From contig CM039008.1 in the NCBI GenBank assembly GCA_017499595.2, positions 2,046,001 to 2,110,000 of the forward strand: a DNA stretch of 64,000 bases, in the 5' to 3' direction. Below the pieces are notes generated by a model. The model made no database searches, was not told where the DNA came from, and worked only from the letters and a program-made list of their open reading frames with translations. Below are positions 1-54,200 of this stretch, in pieces; the stretch's first letter is position 1; each line of letters begins with the position of its first letter. The DNA comes from Psilocybe cubensis (Eukaryota). The translations under genes and the position numbers were made by a program.

Positions 1-1071
<1,071 letters not shown>

Positions 1072-35662: not shown

Positions 35663-36356
35663 TCAGTTGTATTAGGTTTGTTTTGTGAGTTGTGTATCCA
35701 GAAAGCAGACAGGTAGTTTAGCGATAGGTTGTGGGAGAGAGCAAAATGCGTCGCAACATATTATTTCCATGTTACCCAGGGCTACGATCCACACCAAACA
35801 TGTTGGGCGCAGATCGAATGCAAAATCACACGACCGTCGTACATGATCGAACATGGTGGTTACACAAAGAGTAATCAATTGTACCCGACCCTTCTTCATC
35901 GACACTGGAATCAGCGCTAAAAAATCGTAAATTAACAATTATTCGCAAACCCTGCAACCTCTCGACTCAGGCCTCTTTAACGCGTGCTTAATGAGAAACT
36001 GGTGAAACAAGAGATTAATTTGAAGTATGATAACCTCCAGGGTCCAACCAGTGATATCAGGCTCTTGGGCAGGTCAACGCACACATCACAAATGATAGCA
36101 AGAGATCGTATACATAAAGAAAAGAATCACACATCTCACACCGAACTCAAGTACCAGAAAGGATAAGTTCGAACGCCAATTTTGGGGTGGACGACCACGG
36201 GTCAGGTTCACATGAATGAACCTGATGCGTGTCGAGCGGCGACAATTGAATTGAACATCATAACACATTTACAAACGATAGGGTTGCGAAATATGATTGT
36301 ATCACCAAAATGTGTAAACGACGAAGGATGACAAAAGTGCAAAGCGACGACAGAAA

Positions 36357-37073
36357 TCAGAGACGGCGACCACGGCGACCACCCTGTGAGATAGAAAAAA
36401 TAAGATCGCAAGTCAGAAATTGAGAAATATAAAAATGCAGATGGGAAAACGCACCTTGCGTCTGGTGGAATCGGTGGGGACGGGAGTAACATCCTCAATG
36501 CGTCCAATACCCATACCAGCACGAGCAAGAGCACGGAGAGCGCTCTGGGCACCAGGGCCAGGGGTTTTTGTGCCAGTTCCACCGGTAGCGCGGAGCTTGA
36601 TGTGGAGGGCGTTAATTCCAACCTCGCGGCAGCGGGCAGCAGCGTCCTGGGCAGCCAACATGGCAGCGTAGGGGGAGGACTCGTCACGATCGGCCTTGAC
36701 CTTCATTCCGCCTGCAATTTAGAATTCCCAAATGATCAGAACTACCACGCTGAAATTGATACATCGAGGTAGACGCACCGGTAACACGGGTGATGGTCTC
36801 CTTGCCCGACAAATCGGTGATGTGGACGAAAGTGTCATTGAACGAGGCGAAGATGTGAGCAACGCCGAAGACGGTTTCACCCTCAGCGACCTGGGGACCG
36901 AGGGAGACGGTGTTCTCGACGGGGGCCTTGACTTTTTTGGGGGGCTACAAGAGATCATCATCCACAAGTCAGCTTCGCGATCCATCGTTTCTGAACAGAT
37001 TTTGCCGCAGAAAAAAAGACATTGCGTCTCCAGGGACCATTCTGCAACGATACACACGAGATTGACGTACCAT
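36357..37073 (-). CDS. RPS14: 40S ribosomal protein S14 (uS11)
   Basis: [71 protein letters not shown]. Confidence 0.98.
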
Positions 37074-37769
37074 CTTGACGAGTTTGAGGAGGAAGCTTGA
37101 GGATGACTGGAGACGACGTGCTCTGCGATGAGCAAAACCTTCAATGTGATGGGAGCCTTCGATTTATACATGTACAAACACCACTGATCCCCGGCAGTGC
37201 GGGCCGCACCCCTATCTTCCAACTTGAACTCTACTGTTAGGCCCGATACTGGTGCTTGTGGGTTAAAAATTAAAAAAGAAAATAAAAAAAGAAAATACAA
37301 AAAAGGAAAGAGAAGGAGGGAAGGGAGGGAACGAATTCACCCTTCATTTCATACTACTAACATCGTTACTACACTGTTAGTATCTAACATATCAGTGGTT
37401 CGCATTGCTTCACGATTAGCCGGCTTGGTTCAACTCGGCTAAACTCTTGATTCTCGCTTAGATGAACAAAAATACACGAAAAATAAATCAAACATGGTAA
37501 GAGCCCCGAATACATTTCATGGAATCTGATGCTCGCTTACGATTTGACCTCGCATAGATAGCACTGTGCAACGGTTAGATGAAGGTGCGCACATCTCCGA
37601 CGCCAAGGCAAAGGACTTAGCTGGAAACTGCAACAATTCACAGCAGGGCACCAACAACGCCCACCCGCCGTTCCCGCCGTGATTCCCCAACCCACACCAG
37701 CAACAACACCCAGAAAATCGAATTGAATACGCGTTGCCGACGCATCCACCATCCCCATGCTCATCAGCC

Positions 37770-38690
37770 GCGTCCCCCATCCATTCCCAGGCTCGTCAAA
37801 ACTAAACACCGCGCTTCCCACTTCGAAGACGACGCGCTCGCGTCACGTTGGGGCTCTTGACGACTTGAACGTGCTTTGCCGACGCGTTCACCACCCATTC
37901 CCGTCCTCGTCAAGGCTATCCACCGCGCTTCGTGCCTCGAAAACGATGTGCTCGGATGATGTTGAGGGTTCTTGGCAAGGTTAGTGTCACTGACAGCCTC
38001 CATATGATGCTGTACTCACCATACCACACTCATACACACCCAGCAAGTCGTATCGAACACGTTTCAATGCCTCTCTACACCCCGCCTCCCAAACTGGCCG
38101 TGCTCATCTTACAAAACATCGTCGCTGTGCTTCCCGCTACGAAAACGCCATGCCGGTGAGATTTCTTCTCAAGGTGAGTGACCCCGACAACCTCTTTAAA
38201 TTTTAGTGCCATACTCACCAACATAACCAGCTCGTTCATGGCCAGCTAGGCACGATGAGCCTGAACACGCTGCGACAACGCGTCCTCTATCCCTTCCCGC
38301 AGATCCGCGTGTGGGGCTGTTGTCAAGGTTAGGGTCGTTGACAGCCTCTATCTCACCATACCCAACTCGTACGTCTCTGCACATGTACGTGTGTTCCACG
38401 TAGTGACGTGCTCGTCTCGCAGATGAACTCGTCGCTGCGCTTCCCGATTCAAAAACACCACGATTTCTTCTCAAGGTTAGTGACCCCATCGAAGTCTTTT
38501 TACTGGCACGCTGTGTTGATGCGTCCAAGTCTTCTATCCATCCCTGCACATCCAATTGTGTCCGCCACGAAATTAACACCCATGAAGTCACATCCTTGAA
38601 CAAAGCATTCCTGCACTTTCGCATGGTGTGTCCCTTGAAAACGATGCGCGTCAAGGTTAGTGATGGTGTTGACCACATTTGAAGAATGCT
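37770..38690. repeat. Degenerate tandem/modular repeat tract
   Basis: A ~113-bp duplication at 37770 and 37883. CAAGGTTAGTG-like cores at about 37976, 38170, 38324, 38472 and 38652. GATTTCTTCTCAAGGT(G/T)AGTGACCCC at 38160 and 38462. Confidence 0.7.
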
Positions 38691-39111
38691 CACCAAGAAA
38701 AACACGGACCCTCGCATCCAGACCCACTGACCGCATCATTCTCACGTTGACGGCCGGTGTGGTAAGTGCCGTCTCACACGAAAAGTGATTCTGGACACTT
38801 GGGCATGCTGATGCGTAAAACGCGCTCCTTGGGATGGGCAGATTGATGTTTGTGGTGTTCATGAGGGACACATAGCCTGCTGTGCAGGTGAGGGGTTGAG
38901 GGTGCTAATTGGGCGAAAAGGGAAGGATGATCGAAGACGCGGTAGCTAGAGGATCAACTCTGGTAATGTTTGAGGGTTTCTGAAACTTGTTCTAGATTAC
39001 GGACAAATAATAAGGAGTACAGTAAGTGATTTATTAATTTTATAGCAAGTTGTAGTACTAATTTCAATGGTTTCTACTATTACATGAATGAAATCCAGAT
39101 GTCATGAGCAT

Positions 39112-42100
39112 TTAGGTCAGTTTAGGCCATCGCTCCTCGGGAACATCTACCCATCCCACATAACAAGGCTTGTCAGGTCGCTTGGTGTACCGACCTTTGC
39201 ATTTGACATTTCCACAATCACGACAACGGTTGTGGCAATGCTTGACCCGTTGGCGACCCGAACATTGTGTGGAGCCGCATTTTGCACAGGTACGAGGCCG
39301 TTTTCCCTTATCTAAAGCGTGCGATCGTTGAATCTGTTCACGCACACGTTTCTCAGACAGTGCTTCGCGATTTACACGATTGTGTACTGCAAGATTTGTC
39401 GCGGTAGTAAAGGTTTTTCGAGTTGTTGAGTGGGGCAGCAAAAGGTCGGAATTTGCACTTTGCAACGGTGTCTGTTGGTCATCGTGTACAGGTGTGTCTT
39501 TGTTGTTACCATGCACCTCTGAACGATTTGTATTAAAGGTTCCAACAGAAACGGACGTTGGAAGAAGTCCGTCATCGACACTCAGTGGTTTCAGAGTTTT
39601 CTCTGGTACACGGGGTGCCGTTACTGAGCGAGATGGGTTGCTAAGGATTGCTGCCAATGGTTTCCGAATGTCATATGTTGTAAAAAGAGACTCTTTAACA
39701 TTGAGGTTTGTTTTCCAATGTGCATAGTACGATTTTAATTGTTCAATTAACTGCAGTAAATGAATATTAGGATACTAGTCATGTTTAAGCTATTTTGTGC
39801 TTACCTTGTATGATATCTCTGAATTGATATCAGCGTAGTGATTCCAGACCTTCACGGCCTTTTTCCAGATTGGGCCGGATGTCAGAGAGTTGTAGTCGGG
39901 ATTGGCTTGCATAAGATCTCGGAAAAGCTGCTTTTCAATGTCGTTATGAATCGGAAGAATGGGCTTTCGTGTGTGTTGCATTTGAGCTAGAAAAGCATGA
40001 CGTTGCTTTTTGTCAATGCTAGGAATAAATTCAGACATCCCAGTTGCAATGCGAATGCTGGTTGGAATCGGAAGAATGCCTAACGTTTCGGTGGTAGGAA
40101 TGTATAGGTTTCCGTTAACCCATCCAGTAATTTCCACGGGATTTATTAGAACATCGTGAAGAAATGACAATCGCTCCTGAATGCTGTTGGTTAACCAGAT
40201 TGAGAAATGGCTGCGATACTTTTGTCCAGTGCTATTGAATGTTCCAACCTAACAAAACAGTTTAATATGATAGAGTAAGTAACAGTAGATATGGTCTTTC
40301 TTACCACAAGGTTGTGGTGCAGAGTGAAATCAGCAAGGCATGAGTAAACATGTTGCACTGATGCACCCGACGATGGAAGATGTGATCTAAGATGAGTATG
40401 TACTCCACCCTCTGTCATGTTTGTTCCACGAAAACATCGATAGATAGTGAGACTTGGTGCTGCACTATCAATCCCTATTGCCGCATAGAGAGGAATTCCG
40501 GGTGGATCAGATATAAAACCGCGTCGTGTCAAATCAAGAATATGGCCCGAGGTCTTCCAATCATTAAAGTTAAACAAAGGAGCACCTGTTGTAGCATCTT
40601 TGAGGGGGCCAAAAGTTTCAAAAACCTTCTTTAGCAATCCATGCAGTATGTCAGCTGGTGGAATGATTCGTTTACATCGTTTCCATAACCAGCGTGGACG
40701 AAGCTTTTGGATTTGCTCAAAAGTCAATGGTGGTGTTTGCATTGCGCCCCATGCACTAATTTTGGCACGGTCTTCACCGTCAGGAATAAATATTGCATCC
40801 CGAAGCTGTCGGGCAAACTCTGCACGTAAACCATGTGTTGAGGAGATATGAAACATGTTGAAAACATGGAAAACGTCTTTGAGGACCCGGCTCCGAATTG
40901 TACTGTCCCAGGTATTTGGATACTGGTCCAGTACTTGTTGGCCTAACGATGCACTTTCTGGGTCAATATTGCGAGGATGGTCTGTGGTTATAGGAGGTGC
41001 ACTAGTAGGCCGATGATTTTCAACAACAAGATTTCCGATTGAAGGAATTGAATCATCATCAAAAGTTGCATCAAGTGAGAGGTCGTTATCATCCAACTCT
41101 GCCAAGCTGGCAGTCAATAGATCCTGATTGGATGACTGATCTAGAGACATAGGGCTTGTTTGAGCTCTAGAAGACGAGTCCGACTGACTTGAATGATGTG
41201 TCCAAAATGTTGGCGAAAAGGTCTTTAAATGACTTCGTAAACAGACAAGAGTAAATGGTGGTGTCCCAAATGATGCAAGTGAACAGTTCCGATGACTGCT
41301 GATTAGTGCACCAGGGACAAATACTTCTTCAATGTCGACAGCAGTTCTTGTAGTAGTAATATTGATGCCATCGAGTTGCCTATCATCTTTGTGGGATGAA
41401 ATTTTTCCTCGAGCAATCACAGATGCCTTGTCGGTGTTGAATAAGAGAACAGGAATGCCTGCATTAAATTGAGAAGGAAGAACTTGCGGTGTTTCAAGAG
41501 TCGAAAGTTTGTTGTAAATGCATATACAAGCATATGCATCACAGGCTGCATAGGCGAGTTGATCGCGAGTAAGGATTTCATTTTCCCAAGCACTGCTAAT
41601 GCGCTCGGGAACGTTTTTGTTTAATCGTTTTCCCAAAACCAATGCACATAGATCAGCCAAACTGCATCGTGCGGAAGATATTACCATTTTGTCTTTTGCA
41701 TATTTGGCAAGGTCAAGAGCGCCAACAAAAGGTTTGGGTGACTGGGAAGCAGTTTGAAGATGCTTTAAATCGGCTTCAACAAGCCGTCCAGCTTTCACAA
41801 TATTTGGATTTTCCAATAAAATCCTAAGCTGACTTGGAAGTGTACCGCCTGCTAACATATCACCAATCTAATCAGAATTTTATTAGTTTACATTTAATCA
41901 TTGGTTTAAGTAGCTTATACATTACCTGAAGAATGTATATGGATGATTTATATGCTATTTGAATAATAGCTGTTTGTCCTCGATGCAGAATATGGCCATT
42001 AGATGATACTTCAACATTCCACTCGGAATCAAACCCTATCACGATTTTTTTGTCAGGATGACTTGGATCAAGATCATCAAGAATAGAGGCCATGGCAGCG

Positions 42101-44196
42101 TCTATGGCAGACGCTGTGCTTTTTACAAAAATAGCAATAGGCGGTGTCGGTACGGCAAGTGGTTCAAGATCTGGATACTTTTCAACTGGTACCACAGACT
42201 CTCGAAGAGACGGCCAGGCATCTTCAAGGAATGCCTTGTCACTGGCAACGTTATCTGTAAATGCAAGCTTGGGTTCGGAATGACCATACATCTTGAGTGA
42301 GTGAAGCATTTGCTTGAGTGCGAGCTGGTATTGAGAATGTGACTTTGTTGCAACAAGGCTACATGACCGGATCTCGCCCCTTTCATTGGTGACCGTAAGC
42401 AATCCCGTAAATATTTCTTCGCCATTGACCTTGGCAATATGCTTTGTGATCTGATTACAAAAATAAAGTTAGTAAAGAGTTATAGTAGTGATAATAGACA
42501 ACTACCACCTTGTGGCTATGATCGAGTGCACAAATTTCTGCACTAAGCATAGACATATGCTGGTTGAAATCATGGATATGCTCCATAATGAATCGGTCGT
42601 ACATGTTCCGGATCCATTGTGCGCTTGGTGTAAATCCATGCCTGCCATGAGGACTGATATCATCAAAACGTGGAAATGACATATACTTTTCTTCCCGCCA
42701 TTTGTCCAGTTTACGGCCAGCTAATTGGTTCAAATACTGAAGATGAAGCTCATCATACTTCAGCAAATGATGCACTCGAATTGTGTCCGATATTTGCTTT
42801 GCACCCAAACCGTTCTGGAACGACGACCTTACATACTGAAAAAGCCGTTTGGATATCGCACTACGATGACTAAGAATGGCGGGGAATTCAGCAGCCAAAT
42901 CTTGTGGAAGTGCCGAGAGAATGCGGCTATCCCAGCTATTAAAGGTCACAGTGTGCTTTCCAGACTTTGGATGAGTGCAGACACTGCAACGATAGCGATA
43001 TCCAATAAGATAGAATTCGGAATCAATATCAATGCATCGGCGAGGATATGATATATTTGCGTGACGTTGTAGTGTTGACTTGCAAATTGGACAGGGAATG
43101 CGTTTGAATAATGCTTGAGGGTCCCACAAATAAAAGCGGATATCCCACAGCTCATGGGGAGACGGTTTGTTGCGTTGAAGAATGAAATATATTGCTGGTC
43201 TAGGAAACCAAAATGAACAGTTTTTGGAATACAAGGGGGGAAGGCCATGCTTGTCTCGTTTTTCGGGCGCAGATTCCAAAACTTTGGCTTCGAAAGCCTC
43301 GAGAAGCCAAACAGGACGCGCATGACGGATGCGCCTACCTGTATTTTCTTGGTACTCACTGTCCTCAACATTCTCATCAACTGGATCCAGCTCATCACCC
43401 TTTTCATCCTGATTCTCCTCAAACCCAACATCTACACCAATTCCCTCGCCCGACATTCCAGTTTCTTCATCTTCGTCCTGGTCTTCATCGGCTAGTTCAA
43501 CCGGTCTCTGGGGATCTTCATCCGGAATAATTTCAATTGTTGACAACGATGTGGGTTCGGAGACATTTGGTAGCACAGGATTTTGAGCGAAAAGAGGGTT
43601 GGGGAGTGTTTGGCGAGTTGATGGGTCCACCGATACGAGAGGTGATCCACCGGACAAATTTGGCATTGAATTTCCTCGATGAAGAGGAAAAGGAAGTCCC
43701 GATGGCGGGCGTGAAGGCTGAAAAGTGCCTGGAATGGTCTATGACAATGGTAAACCATGTTAGTTGTAAACAAGTAGATAAAATTAATAAGACTCACCAC
43801 ACGGCCGAATTCTATTGAAATCTGAGGCTTACTTTTCCGTGGCCGCCCAACAGCTTTCTTTACAACAGGTGTTTGTTGTGCTTTTGTGCCAGAACCTTTC
43901 GGCCTGCCTACGGGGCGGCGATGAGCAGAAGAATCTGTGTCTTCTCCCACTGCTCTGGATTTACTCTTGCTTCCCAGCGGTCGCCCACGCTTTCGAGGAC
44001 GTGAAATCAAGTCCACGGGATATGGGGTAGCTGATCCGGACTCGTGGAAATGCGCAGGTGTCGTTACATTGAATAACGTATGAACTAAACAACCAAAATA
44101 AGCCGCCGAGACTTCAACATCAACAAGGGTTACACATACCTTCTTTTTCCCTCGGTTGACTGGGCATGGGAACGTCAAATGTACGTTCGGAGACAT
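39112..44196 (-). mobile_element. Putative DDE transposase gene (Mutator/ISL3-like signature) with AT-hooks, Cys-rich domains and an inserted DEDDy 3'-5' exonuclease; about 6 exons, roughly 1,600 aa; start codon uncertain
   Basis: Three GRP AT-hooks; CPIC...YRYRCSVC; ALDHSHK; AFTDNV; exonuclease motifs GFDSEW, EADLKHL and YAACDAY; VLKDVFH; RGTNMTEGGVH; C-terminal CAKC..C..C..CRDC..C. Splice sites are canonical and I saw no internal stops. Confidence 0.75.
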
Positions 44197-46808
44197 GCGA
44201 CAATCTAAGAGACCTCAAGTCAGCATACTTTGTACAATGTGAGTGATGCAATTTGTGGCTCACAATGGGCCGCCTAGTCTCGTTGATTGCTGTGGATACG
44301 AAGATTCCAAATCCATTGTTGTTGGATGCCAATCCATGATAATTCACAGTACGTGAGGGGAGATGAGGGACAGCAAAAGGTAAACAGCGGTAAGAATACG
44401 GCGCAAGCAAGGTACAGAGGAGTGCTGAGACGGCCGCGCGACTCGAGTAGACGCAGACGCGACGTGAATGAGACGGGATGAGATATTTCCCAGTCATGTG
44501 AATAATTACATAATATTCTCAGCATCAGTATCCAGCATCAGCCACAGGCATGGATAGCGAGCCTACTGTTAGGCTCGCTATCCATGCCTGTGGCTGATGC
44601 TGGATACTGATGCTGAGAATATTATGTAATTATTCACATGACTGGGAAATATCTCATCCCGTCTCATTCACGTCGCGTCTGCGTCTACTCGAGTCGCGCG
44701 GCCGTCTCAGCACTCCTCTGTACCTTGCTTGCGCCGTATTCTTACCGCTGTTTACCTTTTGCTGTCCCTCATCTCCCCTCACGTACTGTGAATTATCATG
44801 GATTGGCATCCAACAACAATGGATTTGGAATCTTCGTATCCACAGCAATCAACGAGACTAGGCGGCCCATTGTGAGCCACAAATTGCATCACTCACATTG
44901 TACAAAGTATGCTGACTTGAGGTCTCTTAGATTGTCGCATGTCTCCGAACGTACATTTGACGTTCCCATGCCCAGTCAACCGAGGGAAAAAGAAGGTATG
45001 TGTAACCCTTGTTGATGTTGAAGTCTCGGCGGCTTATTTTGGTTGTTTAGTTCATACGTTATTCAATGTAACGACACCTGCGCATTTCCACGAGTCCGGA
45101 TCAGCTACCCCATATCCCGTGGACTTGATTTCACGTCCTCGAAAGCGTGGGCGACCGCTGGGAAGCAAGAGTAAATCCAGAGCAGTGGGAGAAGACACAG
45201 ATTCTTCTGCTCATCGCCGCCCCGTAGGCAGGCCGAAAGGTTCTGGCACAAAAGCACAACAAACACCTGTTGTAAAGAAAGCTGTTGGGCGGCCACGGAA
45301 AAGTAAGCCTCAGATTTCAATAGAATTCGGCCGTGTGGTGAGTCTTATTAATTTTATCTACTTGTTTACAACTAACATGGTTTACCATTGTCATAGACCA
45401 TTCCAGGCACTTTTCAGCCTTCACGCCCGCCATCGGGACTTCCTTTTCCTCTTCATCGAGGAAATTCAATGCCAAATTTGTCCGGTGGATCACCTCTCGT
45501 ATCGGTGGACCCATCAACTCGCCAAACACTCCCCAACCCTCTTTTCGCTCAAAATCCTGTGCTACCAAATGTCTCCGAACCCACATCGTTGTCAACAATT
45601 GAAATTATTCCGGATGAAGATCCCCAGAGACCGGTTGAACTAGCCGATGAAGACCAGGACGAAGATGAAGAAACTGGAATGTCGGGCGAGGGAATTGGTG
45701 TAGATGTTGGGTTTGAGGAGAATCAGGATGAAAAGGGTGATGAGCTGGATCCAGTTGATGAGAATGTTGAGGACAGTGAGTACCAAGAAAATACAGGTAG
45801 GCGCATCCGTCATGCGCGTCCTGTTTGGCTTCTCGAGGCTTTCGAAGCCAAAGTTTTGGAATCTGCGCCCGAAAAACGAGACAAGCATGGCCTTCCCCCC
45901 TTGTATTCCAAAAACTGTTCATTTTGGTTTCCTAGACCAGCAATATATTTCATTCTTCAACGCAACAAACCGTCTCCCCATGAGCTGTGGGATATCCGCT
46001 TTTATTTGTGGGACCCTCAAGCATTATTCAAACGCATTCCCTGTCCAATTTGCAAGTCAACACTACAACGTCACGCAAATATATCATATCCTCGCCGATG
46101 CATTGATATTGATTCCGAATTCTATCTTATTGGATATCGCTATCGTTGCAGTGTCTGCACTCATCCAAAGTCTGGAAAGCACACTGTGACCTTTAATAGC
46201 TGGGATAGCCGCATTCTCTCGGCACTTCCACAAGATTTGGCTGCTGAATTCCCCGCCATTCTTAGTCATCGTAGTGCGATATCCAAACGGCTTTTTCAGT
46301 ATGTAAGGTCGTCGTTCCAGAACGGTTTGGGTGCAAAGCAAATATCGAACACAATTCGAGTGCATCATTTGCTGAAGTATGATGAGCTTCATCTTCAGTA
46401 TTTGAACCAATTAGCTGGCCGTAAACTGGACAAATGGCGGGAAGAAAAGTATATGTCATTTCCACGTTTTGATGATATCAGTCCTCATGGCAGGCATGGA
46501 TTTACACCAAGCGCACAATGGATCCGGAACATGTACGACCGATTCATTATGGAGCATATCCATGATTTCAACCAGCATATGTCTATGCTTAGTGCAGAAA
46601 TTTGTGCACTCGATCATAGCCACAAGGTGGTAGTTGTCTATTATCACTACTATAACTCTTTACTAACTTTATTTTTGTAATCAGATCACAAAGCATATTG
46701 CCAAGGTCAATGGCGAAGAAATATTTACGGGATTGCTTACGGTCACCAATGAAAGGGGCGAGATCCGGTCATGTAGCCTTGTTGCAACAAAGTCACATTC
46801 TCAATACC
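42327..46808. repeat. Near-perfect palindrome: arms 42327-44565 and 44570-46808, spacer CTGT
   Basis: Centre GGATAGCGAGCCTA-CTGT-TAGGCTCGCTATCC. Mirrored ORF coordinates sum to 89135. The only difference I saw is 42787/46348 (Asp vs Asn). Confidence 0.97.
44939..46808 (+). mobile_element. Mirror copy of the 5' part of the transposase gene, cut off by the gap
   Basis: ORFs 44939-45643 and 45469-46680 mirror ORFs 43492-44196 and 42455-43666. Confidence 0.8.
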
Positions 46809-46908
46809 NNNNNNNNNNNNNNNNNNNNNNNNNNNNNNNNNNNNNNNNNNNNNNNNNNNNNNNNNNNNNNNNNNNNNNNNNNNNNNNNNNNNNNNNNNNN
46901 NNNNNNNN
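46809..46908. other. Assembly gap (100 N)
   Basis: Run of Ns. Confidence 1.
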
Positions 46909-51275: not shown

Positions 51276-54200
51276 ATGTCGTCCACCCGACGGGAAACGT
51301 TGCCCCTCAAGGAGAGGATCGTGGCCTTACTTACTCCTTCGGCAACTGGATCTTCCACTGATCAAGAACCCTCCTCAATGGACACATCACCTGATTACCC
51401 GACGGAACGTCTAGAACAAGTAGAACAAGGAGGAGCTGGAGCTACTTTGTCCAACGCTACGCCTTCTAATGTAGCGGTTTCTTTTCCAATTCCTCCACCC
51501 GGACCTGCCGCAGATGAACACGGTGCACGTACAGCCTCCATTGCTCCCTCTGTTTCTCAGCCCACCAATGGCGCTAGTTTGACCAATCAGGTTCCTGTAA
51601 ATGCGGTTATTCTCTTACCACCCCGGCTTGCTGCAGATGACCAGGGAGCCCAAGGATCTTCAGTCCCAAATCGTGTTGCTCCCTCTGTTTCTCAGCCCAG
51701 CAATGGCGCTAGTTTGACCAATCAAGCTCCTGTAAATGCGGTTACTCTCTTACCACCCCGGCTTGCTGCAGATGACCAGGGAGCCCAAGGATCTTCCGTC
51801 CCAGATCGTGTTGCTCCCTCTGTTTCTCAGCCCACCAACGGCGCTAGTTCGATCGATCAGGCGCCTTTCCGGTTTGCTACAGATGTTCGGGGTGCCCAAG
51901 GATCCTCCATTGCGAATAGTGTCTCTCGGCCATCCGCTGGACATATCCCACGGATTGGGTCTTCCGACGTGCTTTTTCCTGGACATTTCCGACAGAACGA
52001 GTCTTCCGCCAACACTAATCCTCCTCCGAACCCTGAAACGTCTATGGACATTGATCCTACACTACCTACGTCGTCAAATCCCAGTAGCACCTCTACATTT
52101 CCACGGTTTTTTATACCCGTTTTGTCTGGAAATTTGTTCAATTTCACTAGAAGTGATCCGAACCAGTCTAACCAGTCTAAGGCGAAGAAACGACGAGCTG
52201 CACCGGAAGACCATACCACCAAAGTCCAAGTCATCGAACAGAAAGACGTCGACATCGCAGAGCTGAGCAAGCAACAGGCACGTTACCCAAAATCTACTTT
52301 TCTTGTCATTTATGTATTCATTGCTTTTTTAGATCAAGCAGAGGGAAGAGGTGCTCAAGAAAATCATTGATGATGAACGAGCGGAAGTATGTTAATTTAT
52401 TTCCTATGTTGCAAGATTTGCGTATTTACCACCATCGTACAGCTAACTAAGTCGAAGAATGCCATCAAAAATGCTGAAAAGAAAGCAGAAAGGAGCAAAA
52501 AGGAGGTAGAGGCTGTACGTTCGCAGTATACCAAGCTGTCGAAGGCAATGCGGACGGAGAAGGAGAGCTCCAAAGGGCTTGAAGAAACTGTTAAAACTCA
52601 ACAAGGCGACCTCTCGTCAGCGTTGATCAAACTTCGGCGTGCAGAGTCCTTATCTAAAGCATACGACCGCCAGCGTCTTGAAGCTCAGGAGCGTCACGAG
52701 AAAACGAATGCCGATCTCGAAGCTGCGGTTGCTTCGCGAGGTCAACAACTCTTCGCACAAATCTCAGATTTAGAAAACGACATCGCTCGTCTGCAGCAAG
52801 AGAAATCCAGCGAAGTCAGTACGTTACAGCGGCAGCTCCAGCAAGCAAATTCGAGGATTGAAGATTTAAGTGCCTCACAAAATACAGCGGCCCTTGCACA
52901 GGAACAAATTAGCTCTCTTCAGCAACAGCTCCGGGACGCGAATTCGACAATTGAAAATCTCAACGCATCGCAACGTGCAGCAGCAACGTTACAGCAGCAG
53001 CTCCAGCAAGCAAATTCGAGGATTGAAGATTTAAGTGCCTCACAAAATACGGCGGCCCTTGCACAGGAACAAATTAACTCTCTTCAGCAACAGCTCCGGG
53101 ACGCGAATTCGACAATTGAAAATCTCAACGCATCGCAACGTGCAGCAGCAACGTTACAGCAGCAGCTCCAGGCAGCAAATTCGAGGATTGAAAGTTTAAG
53201 TGCCTCACAAAATACGGCGGCCCTTGCACAGGAACAAATTAACTCTCTTCAGCAACAGCTCCGGGACGCGAATTCGACAATTGCAAATCTCAACACATCG
53301 CAAAGTGCAGCACACGCACAGGACCAAATCAATGCTCTCCAACAACAGCTAGAGCGCGCAAACACGACACGTGTGGAAGATCAACAAACTATCACGGGCC
53401 TCAATGAACGGTTGCGTGTTGCGTCAAACGAGATAACCCGCCTTACAGCACAATTACAAAACCAGCGAGAGGAGTCGCAGAAACAGTATCATGCGCTCGA
53501 ACGCGATCTCAAGTCCCAAATGGATCTCCATCAACAAAAATCAGCGGACGCCGAGAACGCTCTGAAAGCAGAGCAAACTAACCGAATGGTTTGTCTGTCA
53601 ATCTTTAATCATGGCATTGTTGCTGATACAGAGCACAGGCCGAGATGAATCAAATGAAGGCCACTTACGAGGATACGGTGGTAGGATTCTAGTTTAGCCT
53701 ATGCCTCAACAAATCCGACTGATAAGGTATCATTATTAGTCCAGCCTGCGTCTCCAAGTTTCCAATCTGGCACAACAATGTCAGGCAAATCAAGGTCGCT
53801 TGAACGAGCTGGAATCAAGCAATACCGAATTCGGTAACACGACAAGTGCGTTGGAGGACATATTAAAGAACGAACGAATTAAGAATGAAGTAAATCTGTT
53901 CCCCTCCTTGTCAATCTTCGATTCTGATCACACCTCCAAGGTTTTGCAGGCTCGCATTAATTCAGTTATGAAGAACAGAACTCACAATACTGAGGATGAT
54001 TATGAACCAACGGAAATTAGGAGGTTGGATGCCCGGCGGAGGCTGGTATGTTAAACAATCCATTCGTACGTAGTACCTAATAATTTACCTCGATGTCTTC
54101 TAGATTGGGATCAACAAGCGCAATGCCGGGTTTTCTATACATTCACGAGTACGCAATAATGTATGTGGTGATCTTGTTGATCCTAACGAGGTATCTTAGA

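Follow-up and report, generated by a model that had tools for sequence, protein, structure and literature searches.

The stretch analysed here, called the window below, comprises 64,000 nucleotides of the forward strand of contig CM039008.1 of Psilocybe cubensis (assembly GCA_017499595.2, positions 2,046,001 to 2,110,000). Among ordinary genes it contains a 7,325-bp mobile element with a spliced minus-strand gene, and the spliced product of this gene is letter-for-letter the protein P0001 of 1601 residues, whose NCBI name is 'Werner syndrome ATP-dependent helicase-like protein [Psilocybe cubensis]'. A reading made from the letters alone (the sequence-only reading) had proposed for this locus a putative transposase whose catalytic core is interrupted by a DEDDy 3'-5' exonuclease, all encoded in one spliced frame, and the 1601-residue open reading frame (ORF) identical to P0001 bears out that single frame. 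The element and the gene are laid out as follows, in window coordinates.

37240..44564, minus strand (the orientation of the transposase): the whole transposon, 7,325 bp, with a left boundary that is possibly 37239
37233..37239, no strand: left target-site duplication, ACTGTTA, or 6 bp (ACTGTT) if the element begins at 37239
44565..44571, no strand: right target-site duplication, ACTGTTA, which is also the spacer before an inverted second copy
37239..37262, plus strand: left terminal inverted repeat, AGGCCCGATACTGGTGCTTGTGGG
44541..44564, minus strand: right terminal inverted repeat, reverse complement AGGCTCGCTATCCATGCCTGTGGC
39112..44316, minus strand: transposase gene, eight exons, stop included, 1601 residues, equal to P0001
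44316-44264, 44204-44140, 44084-43798 and 43738-42509, minus strand: exons 1-4, with the ATG at 44316
42450-41926, 41867-40305, 40248-39805 and 39750-39112, minus strand: exons 5-8, with the stop at 39112

The ends of the element are defined by its occurrence at two sites. In X5, a run from another study, a contig of 7,401 nt covers exactly 37240-44564 with foreign flanks, and the same 8 letters, TTTCCAAT, stand on both sides of it. The duplicated target sequences of the two copies differ from each other, being ACTGTT(A), 6-7 bp, for the window copy and TTTCCAA(T), 7-8 bp, for the X5 copy; their length is uncertain by one base because the first base of the element (37239) is ambiguous. The locus thus bears the signature of a staggered cut, with duplications of 6-8 bp. 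An inverted-repeat search of 36500-39111 against 44197-44567, made before the ends were defined, had given chance matches only. With the termini anchored, the two ends of the window copy were seen by eye to form an imperfect terminal inverted repeat of 24 bp that matches at 16 of 24 positions. The sequence-only reading had suggested looking for inverted repeats and duplications in the flanks of copies; duplications were found at both sites, and the imperfect inverted repeat at the ends of the window copy.

Copy number was judged from read depth and protein records. The raw reads of run X14 cover 36000-37163 at ~24x and 37455-44438 at ~133x, a ratio of ~5.4, and 6561 of 7075 aligned reads reach a likeness of 99% or more. 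At 37240 (32 reads, agreement 0.55) and at 44563 (40 reads, agreement 0.51) there are loose ends of mixed sequence. At 90% identity or more, P0001 clusters with two other annotated proteins encoded on the same 3.05-Mb scaffold, which makes three copies, and one of these two is identical to P0001 at 1526 of 1527 aligned residues. Furthermore, a 56-kb contig of X5 follows the window over 36000-37231 and then, 8 letters before the first base of the element, passes into unrelated sequence. This contig is not a simple empty site, and its continuation is absent from the window; the loose-end letters of X5 and X14 have no other occurrence in the window either, and an empty site could not be reconstructed from them. 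Defined ends, duplications at two sites, excess depth, mixed flanks and near-identical copies together lead us to conclude that the element is multi-copy, polymorphic between strains and recently moved, and it is probably still active in P. cubensis. A single-copy gene in conserved synteny, the outcome named beforehand as speaking against a transposon, is not what the data show, as the gene is multi-copy and its insertion sites differ between strains.

The motifs and domains of the protein are given below, where 'model' refers to an AlphaFold2 model of P0001 residues 488-1419 that was built with 61 aligned relatives.

44001-43831, minus strand: three GRP-type AT-hook-like motifs, recognised from the sequence (P0001 residues 68-124)
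42593..43225, minus strand: DUF6729 region (P0001 307-517; PF20499, 1.3e-18, above the Pfam cut-off)
43093-42977, minus strand: N-terminal Cys4 finger (CxxC...CxxC; C351, C354, C386, C389), within the DUF6729 region
42529-42509, minus strand: ALDHSHK motif
42521..42523, minus strand: catalytic D1, D541, in strand beta-1 of the RNase H-like fold (model D54, strand 50-56)
42261-42247, minus strand: FTDNV motif
42253..42255, minus strand: catalytic D2, D611, directly after strand beta-4 (model D124, strand 120-123)
41493..42171, minus strand: inserted WRN-type DEDDy 3'-5' exonuclease domain (P0001 639-845), spanning the intron 41925-41868
42036-42019, minus strand: GFDSEW motif
41777-41757, minus strand: EADLKHL motif
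41552-41532, minus strand: YAACDAY motif
41220..41453, minus strand: beta-rich subdomain with no assigned fold, 3' of the exonuclease and part of the inserted module (P0001 859-936)
40977..41189, minus strand: disordered Ser/Asp-rich linker that ends the inserted module (P0001 947-1017)
40877-40866, minus strand: DVFH motif
40866..40877, minus strand: DxxH signature, D1051 and H1054 (model 564-567, after strand 561-563)
40424-40410, minus strand: TNMTE motif
40410..40412, minus strand: catalytic E, E1206, on a helix (model E719, helix 716-727)
39154..39288, minus strand: C-terminal Cys-rich cluster, CxxC-x4-C...C-x3-C-xx-C...C

Each motif was found on the minus strand at the position first reported for it. 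The proposed start of the frame at 44196 was slightly off, as the intron-less contigs described below place the ATG at 44316 and add two further short introns upstream. The AT-hook-like motifs give no match to Pfam AT_hook in P0001 at E<=1, and a weak match appears only in the relative P0002. Of 50 aligned rows, 29 have the Cys pattern C-x2-4-C...C-x2-C ahead of DHS[HF]K, and 39 have the first Cys pair together with Y-x-C. The seven-Cys pattern is present within the last 150 residues in 22 of 50 rows, many of the gene models ending early.

The AlphaFold2 model has a mean predicted local distance difference test score (pLDDT) of 87.0 and a predicted template modelling score (pTM) of 0.78. Between D2 and DxxH it contains, in this order, a compact domain (model 152-358), the beta-rich subdomain, whose strands lie at 372-449 with pLDDT mostly >90, and a disordered linker (460-530; pLDDT <50 at 460-507 and 524-529). 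The compact domain is the exonuclease. In an exhaustive structural comparison it matched the mouse WRN exonuclease 2e6l over model 152..358 with Z 26.3, a root-mean-square deviation (rmsd) of 1.9, 185 aligned residues and 36% identity; Pfam DNA_pol_A_exo1 (PF01612) matches P0001 682-842 at 2.6e-15 (57.1 bits, cut-off 23.6). Exo I (DxE), Exo II (D) and Exo III (YxxxD) are all present in a DnaQ-like fold, through D686, E688, D753, Y826 and D830.

The best match to a transposase in the same comparison, at rank 22, is that of the IS256-family ISCth4 transposase (6xg8_A; Z 13.3, rmsd 4.5, 252 aligned), which aligns model 1..763 with chain 114..392. This alignment runs across the insert, and thus a single bacterial catalytic domain is matched by both flanks together. 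The RNase H fold that had been predicted for the flanking segments is therefore recovered in the modelled flanks as one RNase H-like fold. Sequence-level and Foldseek comparisons bore on the exonuclease: profile matches to PDB sequences were confined to the exonuclease domain (E 2.9e-28), plus noise, and exonucleases fill the Foldseek PDB matches listed, with no transposase among them, so that those lists are uninformative on the core. The module sits in the loop between the helix that follows beta-4/D2 and beta-5/DxxH. The high pTM, together with a helix near model residue 880 that is included in several exonuclease alignments, suggests a fixed contact of the exonuclease with the body of the transposase and not a loosely hanging domain.

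Conservation was examined in an alignment of 107 relatives from Basidiomycota and Mucoromycota, in which counts refer to the rows with a residue at the site. The transposase residues are kept in 97/100 (D1), 103/104 (D2), 104/105 (D of DxxH), 104/104 (H) and 95/96 (E) rows, and the exonuclease residues D/E/D/Y/D in 100/105, 103/105, 99/102, 103/105 and 101/105. Among the 82 rows that have a residue at all 11 sites, the transposase set is kept in 81 and the exonuclease set in 74. Both catalytic sets, which had been called apparently intact, are accordingly intact and conserved across the family, and this degree of residue conservation, well beyond what chance would give, argues that both active sites are under selection. 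The distance from D2 to DxxH is 345-468 residues (median 426) in 99 of 100 rows.

The remaining row is P0109 from Apophysomyces ossiformis, in which this distance is 50 residues. In a second exonuclease-free protein, P0231 from Apophysomyces sp., residues 1-241 align with P0001 380-622 and residues 241-720 with P0001 1050-1506; the exonuclease-free relative lacks the beta-rich subdomain as well. For a model of P0109 (pLDDT 73.7, pTM 0.76), ISCth4 is again the first structural match (Z 12.9, rmsd 3.5, 272 aligned). Retroviral integrases, Hermes (Z 9.0), the P element transposase (Z 8.7), TnsB, IstA, Transib, Mu, Tn5 and Mos1 come next, and the first 32 of the 50 structural rows listed are all transposases or integrases. 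The closest listed relatives of P0109, P0231 and a third exonuclease-free protein, P0356, come from Phascolomyces and Circinella (58-70% identity) and carry the exonuclease; the module is therefore apparently losable, which suggests that Apophysomyces lost it secondarily, as a whole and precisely. The fold model, the conservation in the family and the exonuclease-free relative with its directly joined flanks support the view that a DDE core of the C/DxxH group is interrupted here by an intact DEDDy exonuclease.

The gene is expressed, as seen in contigs without introns from X9 and X10. We presume these to be RNA runs, relying on the lack of introns in their contigs, that of the neighbouring ribosomal-protein gene included. 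GT..AG skips in these contigs cover five of the seven introns (44204>44264, 44084>44140, 43738>43798, 40246>40303 and 39750>39805), and at a sixth, 42451-42508, a loose end of 17 letters at 42452 matches the end of the upstream exon. The junctions fit one ORF, and a division of the locus into separate transposase and exonuclease genes, envisaged earlier as a possible outcome, was not borne out.

Based on these features, we consider it very likely that the whole constitutes an autonomous DNA transposon belonging to the Dada superfamily, and specifically to its exonuclease-bearing fungal lineage first seen in Laccaria bicolor. Dada is taken here as it is described in excerpts of Kojima and Jurka 2013 (PMC3706591), and membership was judged by the match of features, the D1-D2 spacing and the host group. 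According to these excerpts, Dada elements encode a DDE transposase with DxxH that is distantly similar to those of MuDR, hAT, P, Kolobok and IS256, have an N-terminal CCCC finger, a C-terminal CCHC finger and introns, are 4.7-11 kb long and produce 6-7-bp duplications, and in Laccaria bicolor and Ectocarpus a DEDDy exonuclease lies between the second D and DxxH. Kojima 2022 (PMC9587614), likewise in excerpt, counts Dada among five C/DxxH superfamilies and describes Kolobok lineages with DEDDh or lambda-type exonucleases, and the excerpt of Muszewska et al. 2017 (PMC5751038) puts the number of Dada elements across four fungal phyla at 1,023. The P. cubensis protein has the DDE residues with DxxH after the second D (D541, D611, D1051xxH1054, E1206), the CCCC finger upstream of D1 (C351, C354, C386, C389) and the DEDDy exonuclease between D2 and DxxH that marks the fungal and brown-algal members, and the duplications of its window copy (6-7 bp) and X5 copy (7-8 bp) are of about the published length. 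The sequence-only reading had allowed that the architecture might already be catalogued; both it and the idea of 3'-end processing are indeed found in the excerpts of PMC3706591, which state that the exonuclease 'likely process[es] the cleaved 3' ends'.

Several observations weigh against this assignment. The likeness to the Dada transposases of Repbase was judged by description and not by direct comparison of sequences, and the matches listed by word-based searches are all fungal or unnamed proteins, none of them named as coming from Laccaria or an animal. The sole match to a Pfam transposase family, MULE (PF10551), is below threshold. The C-terminal Cys cluster has no conserved His, as compared with the CCHC finger given in the excerpts of PMC3706591 (C1359/C1362/H1372/C1381 in Dada-U6_DR), and the element has an imperfect terminal inverted repeat, whereas Dada-U6 and Dada-U1 are described there as having none, only short sub-terminal ones. 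The copy also lies outside small-RNA genes, while all Dada families with definable ends are reported to insert into U6, U1 or tRNA genes. We regard such targeting as characteristic of single families, since it is the transposase that defines the superfamily; in the excerpts it is a property of families with defined ends and not of numbered families such as Dada-1_LB. As for the gene, the intron 41868-41925 is not shown in the X9/X10 contigs, in which the exonuclease exons have a thin depth of 0-5, and no single X9/X10 contig joins D2, the exonuclease and DxxH as one RNA. Finally, the exonuclease-free Apophysomyces proteins P0109, P0231 and P0356 are gene models only, and that of P0231 is fused to an SH3-domain protein.

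On the one hand, one could regard the element as a divergent member of the Mutator/MULE (MuDR) group that acquired an exonuclease independently and is not a Dada element, which we consider quite improbable. The MULE match over the D2 region would fit this view (P0001 569-628, 14.3 bits, E 0.058; 16.8 bits, E 0.0096, on the single exon), as would the best fold match, since the IS256 family comprises prokaryotic relatives of Mutator, and a 'Mutator-like transposase' cluster in the Atlas (score 0.85), which is a lead only. However, the Pfam scores of 14-17 bits are well below the gathering cut-off of 27.6, and a likeness to MuDR and IS256 is to be expected of Dada because PMC3706591 describes Dada as distantly similar to both. 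Moreover, the CCCC finger, an exonuclease exactly between D2 and DxxH, an agaric host and a target-site duplication of 6-8 bp together constitute the published description of the Laccaria Dada families, and it is in Chordata, a group from which Dada is known, that DUF6729 clusters lacking PF01612 are most frequent in the Atlas, again a lead only. On the other hand, the gene might belong to the host, encoding a WRN-like exonuclease or a domesticated transposase, in keeping with its name at the source and with an intact, expressed ORF among ordinary genes. This we regard as scarcely credible. No helicase family was found in a Pfam scan of P0001 at E<=1, and the RecQ helicase that the name implies is not there; therefore, the database name 'Werner syndrome helicase-like' is misleading. 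A host gene is also at odds with the defined ends and target duplications at two sites, the ~5.4-fold depth in X14, the X5 data, in which the element is at another site and the contig leaves the window after 37231, the near-identical copies in one assembly, and the many divergent copies per genome across fungi.

Another alternative accepts the transposon and concerns the exonuclease, which could be a passenger without a role in transposition, acting for example in host-directed DNA repair, in defence against silencing or as a structural spacer. The exonuclease-free Apophysomyces proteins, with nearest listed relatives that carry the module, and the animal Dada elements, which have no exonuclease according to the excerpts of PMC3706591, speak for it. 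Yet 74 of the 82 complete rows, drawn from Basidiomycota and Mucoromycota, retain all five catalytic residues, 99 of 100 rows have the module in one and the same core loop, and the pTM of 0.78 for the multi-domain model would fit a fixed packing on the transposase, and we consider a mere passenger unlikely.

For an exonuclease-bearing Dada element, the following course of transposition may be envisaged. DNA binding is presumably the task of the AT-hooks and the Cys4/DUF6729 region, and the DDE centre would nick the ends of the element and join their 3'-OH ends to a staggered target, as the chemistry of the family suggests. From its loop beside beta-5, the WRN-type exonuclease could trim 3' ends made during transposition, the candidate substrates being flank nucleotides on the transferred strand, the ends of the element, and gaps in the donor or the target. 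Trimming of 3' ends would most likely be the job of the exonuclease, as was also proposed in the excerpts of PMC3706591.

The surroundings of the 5' end of the element are unusual in that its 5' part is present a second time in inverted orientation:

44571..46808, plus strand: inverted second copy of the 5' part of the element, 100% identical, ending at a 100-N gap (46809-46908)

The arms 42327-44565 and 44570-46808, each of 2,239 nt, are 100% complementary and form a perfect palindrome whose centre lies just outside the 5' end of the element. The second arm may reflect a genuine second insertion, head to head with the first, or the assembly may have folded back at the repeat. In addition, two raw reads of X14 pass from 44563 to 37236 with two extra letters in between, leaving a spacer of ~6 letters, a junction that could stem from a tandem pair or from a circle; two reads are too few to weigh. 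A variant of the Dada interpretation, to which we give a small chance, is that an active exonuclease-bearing Dada element which, in contrast to the animal families, has inverted ends and can do without a small-RNA target moves through an IS256-like intermediate in which its ends are joined, as a circle or a tandem, with the exonuclease trimming the 3' flank. It is raised because the core is closest in fold to the copy-out/paste-in transposase of ISCth4, because the identical head-to-head second copy is separated by a spacer of exactly one target-duplication length, and because of the two reads that run from the right end into the left end across the ~6-letter spacer.

The 3' part of the element gives rise to a second transcript, convergent with the transposase gene:

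37517..39290, plus strand: spliced transcript in the 3' part of the element, with 7-8 short GT..AG skips in X9/X10 contigs

Its last intron overlaps the final exon of the transposase gene. The joined exons contain no convincing ORF, the longest ORF with an ATG being 159 residues and encoding no recognisable protein, and a second protein gene at 37517-39290 therefore seems unlikely. The same region holds degenerate internal repeats of 114-194 nt and is the site at which copies differ most in X14.

Proteins of this kind are widespread in fungi. A word-based search with the large exon returned 113 long proteins, often many per genome, from agarics, Tulasnella, Rhizopogon, Rhodosporidiobolus, Parasitella and Apophysomyces, as well as 221 shorter ones, the best 120 of which are mostly unnamed metagenome ORFs on contigs of 2-10 kb. 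Mucorales have many copies, most of them with the exonuclease. With the part from DxxH to E as query, the cluster representatives reached by phmmer number 1338 at E<=1e-3, falling to 698 at 1e-10 and to 222 at 1e-30; the best 150 rows, listed without names, all have E<=1.5e-38. The public name 'Werner syndrome helicase-like' is thus misleading for a protein family of this size. No bench study of any Dada transposase and no literature on DUF6729 was found in open-access papers and preprints.

The left end of the element lies ~300 bp upstream of a ribosomal-protein gene. This three-exon gene (36221-36938, minus strand) has a depth of ~520-620 in X9/X10 contigs, and its translation resembles what we take to be ribosomal protein S14/uS11. 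No tRNA gene was found in the window by ARAGORN, and the sole Rfam find in the window is a U2 spliceosomal RNA gene at 1849-2037 on the plus strand (RF00004, 113.4 bits), which is 35 kb from the element and therefore not its target. Elsewhere in the window, tandem repeats lie within long plus-strand ORFs, at 51541-51866 (135 nt, three partial copies) and at 52821-53315 (165 nt, three copies, 92-100% identity); the ORF with the latter repeats has weak, sub-threshold Pfam matches of coiled-coil type.

A second nuclease inside a transposase core is not a new idea, having been described for Dada in 2013 (PMC3706591, in excerpt), with related pairings in Kolobok. The present analysis adds a new member to the fungal lineage of Dada that bears the exonuclease, one that is well delimited and probably active. 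With an intact and expressed gene, defined ends and duplications, near-identical copies and strain differences that point to recent movement, the P. cubensis copy is suited to a study of the role of the exonuclease.

The closest known systems are Dada-1_LB and Dada-2_LB of Laccaria bicolor and Dada-1_ES of Ectocarpus, as described in the excerpts of PMC3706591. Like the P. cubensis element they combine DDE and DxxH with a DEDDy exonuclease that lies after the second D and ahead of DxxH and retains all its catalytic residues, and by description they also share the N-terminal Cys4 finger, introns, an element size of 5.6-7.8 kb and an agaric host. The excerpts name no target for the Laccaria families, whereas for the P. 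cubensis element the ends, the 6-8-bp duplication and the imperfect 24-bp repeat are defined. The animal Dada elements of the same excerpts (Dada-U6_DR, Dada-U1, Dada-tL and Dada-tA) share DDE and DxxH, the CCCC finger upstream of D1, target-site duplications of 6-7 bp, a long protein and many exons, and the spacing from D1 to D2 is 68 residues in Dada-U6_DR and 70 in P0001. They differ in having no exonuclease, with 176 residues from D2 to E as against 595 in P0001, and in inserting strictly into U6, U1 or tRNA genes without terminal inverted repeats, while no small-RNA gene is near the P. cubensis copy.

Outside Dada, the catalytic core finds its best structural match, with or without the insert, in ISCth4; the two share only 12-13% identity and no sequence-level match, and the ISCth4 transposase is a bacterial protein of ~400 residues with no exonuclease. 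The insert has its fold and its five catalytic residues in common with the WRN exonuclease (2e6l, 2fbt) and other DEDDy enzymes (RNase D, Nibbler/Mut-7 and EXD2), but in P0001 the exonuclease is an internal module of a transposase, whereas in WRN it is the N-terminus of a RecQ helicase. Finally, KolobokD, with a DEDDh exonuclease, and KolobokE, with a lambda-exonuclease-like one, are described in the excerpts of PMC9587614 as eukaryotic members of the C/DxxH group that, like the Dada element, bring their own exonuclease, for which the same role in 3'-end degradation is proposed. They belong to another superfamily, their exonuclease is of another class (DEDDh, TREX/ERI1-like), and the excerpts make no mention of a position within the catalytic core for it.

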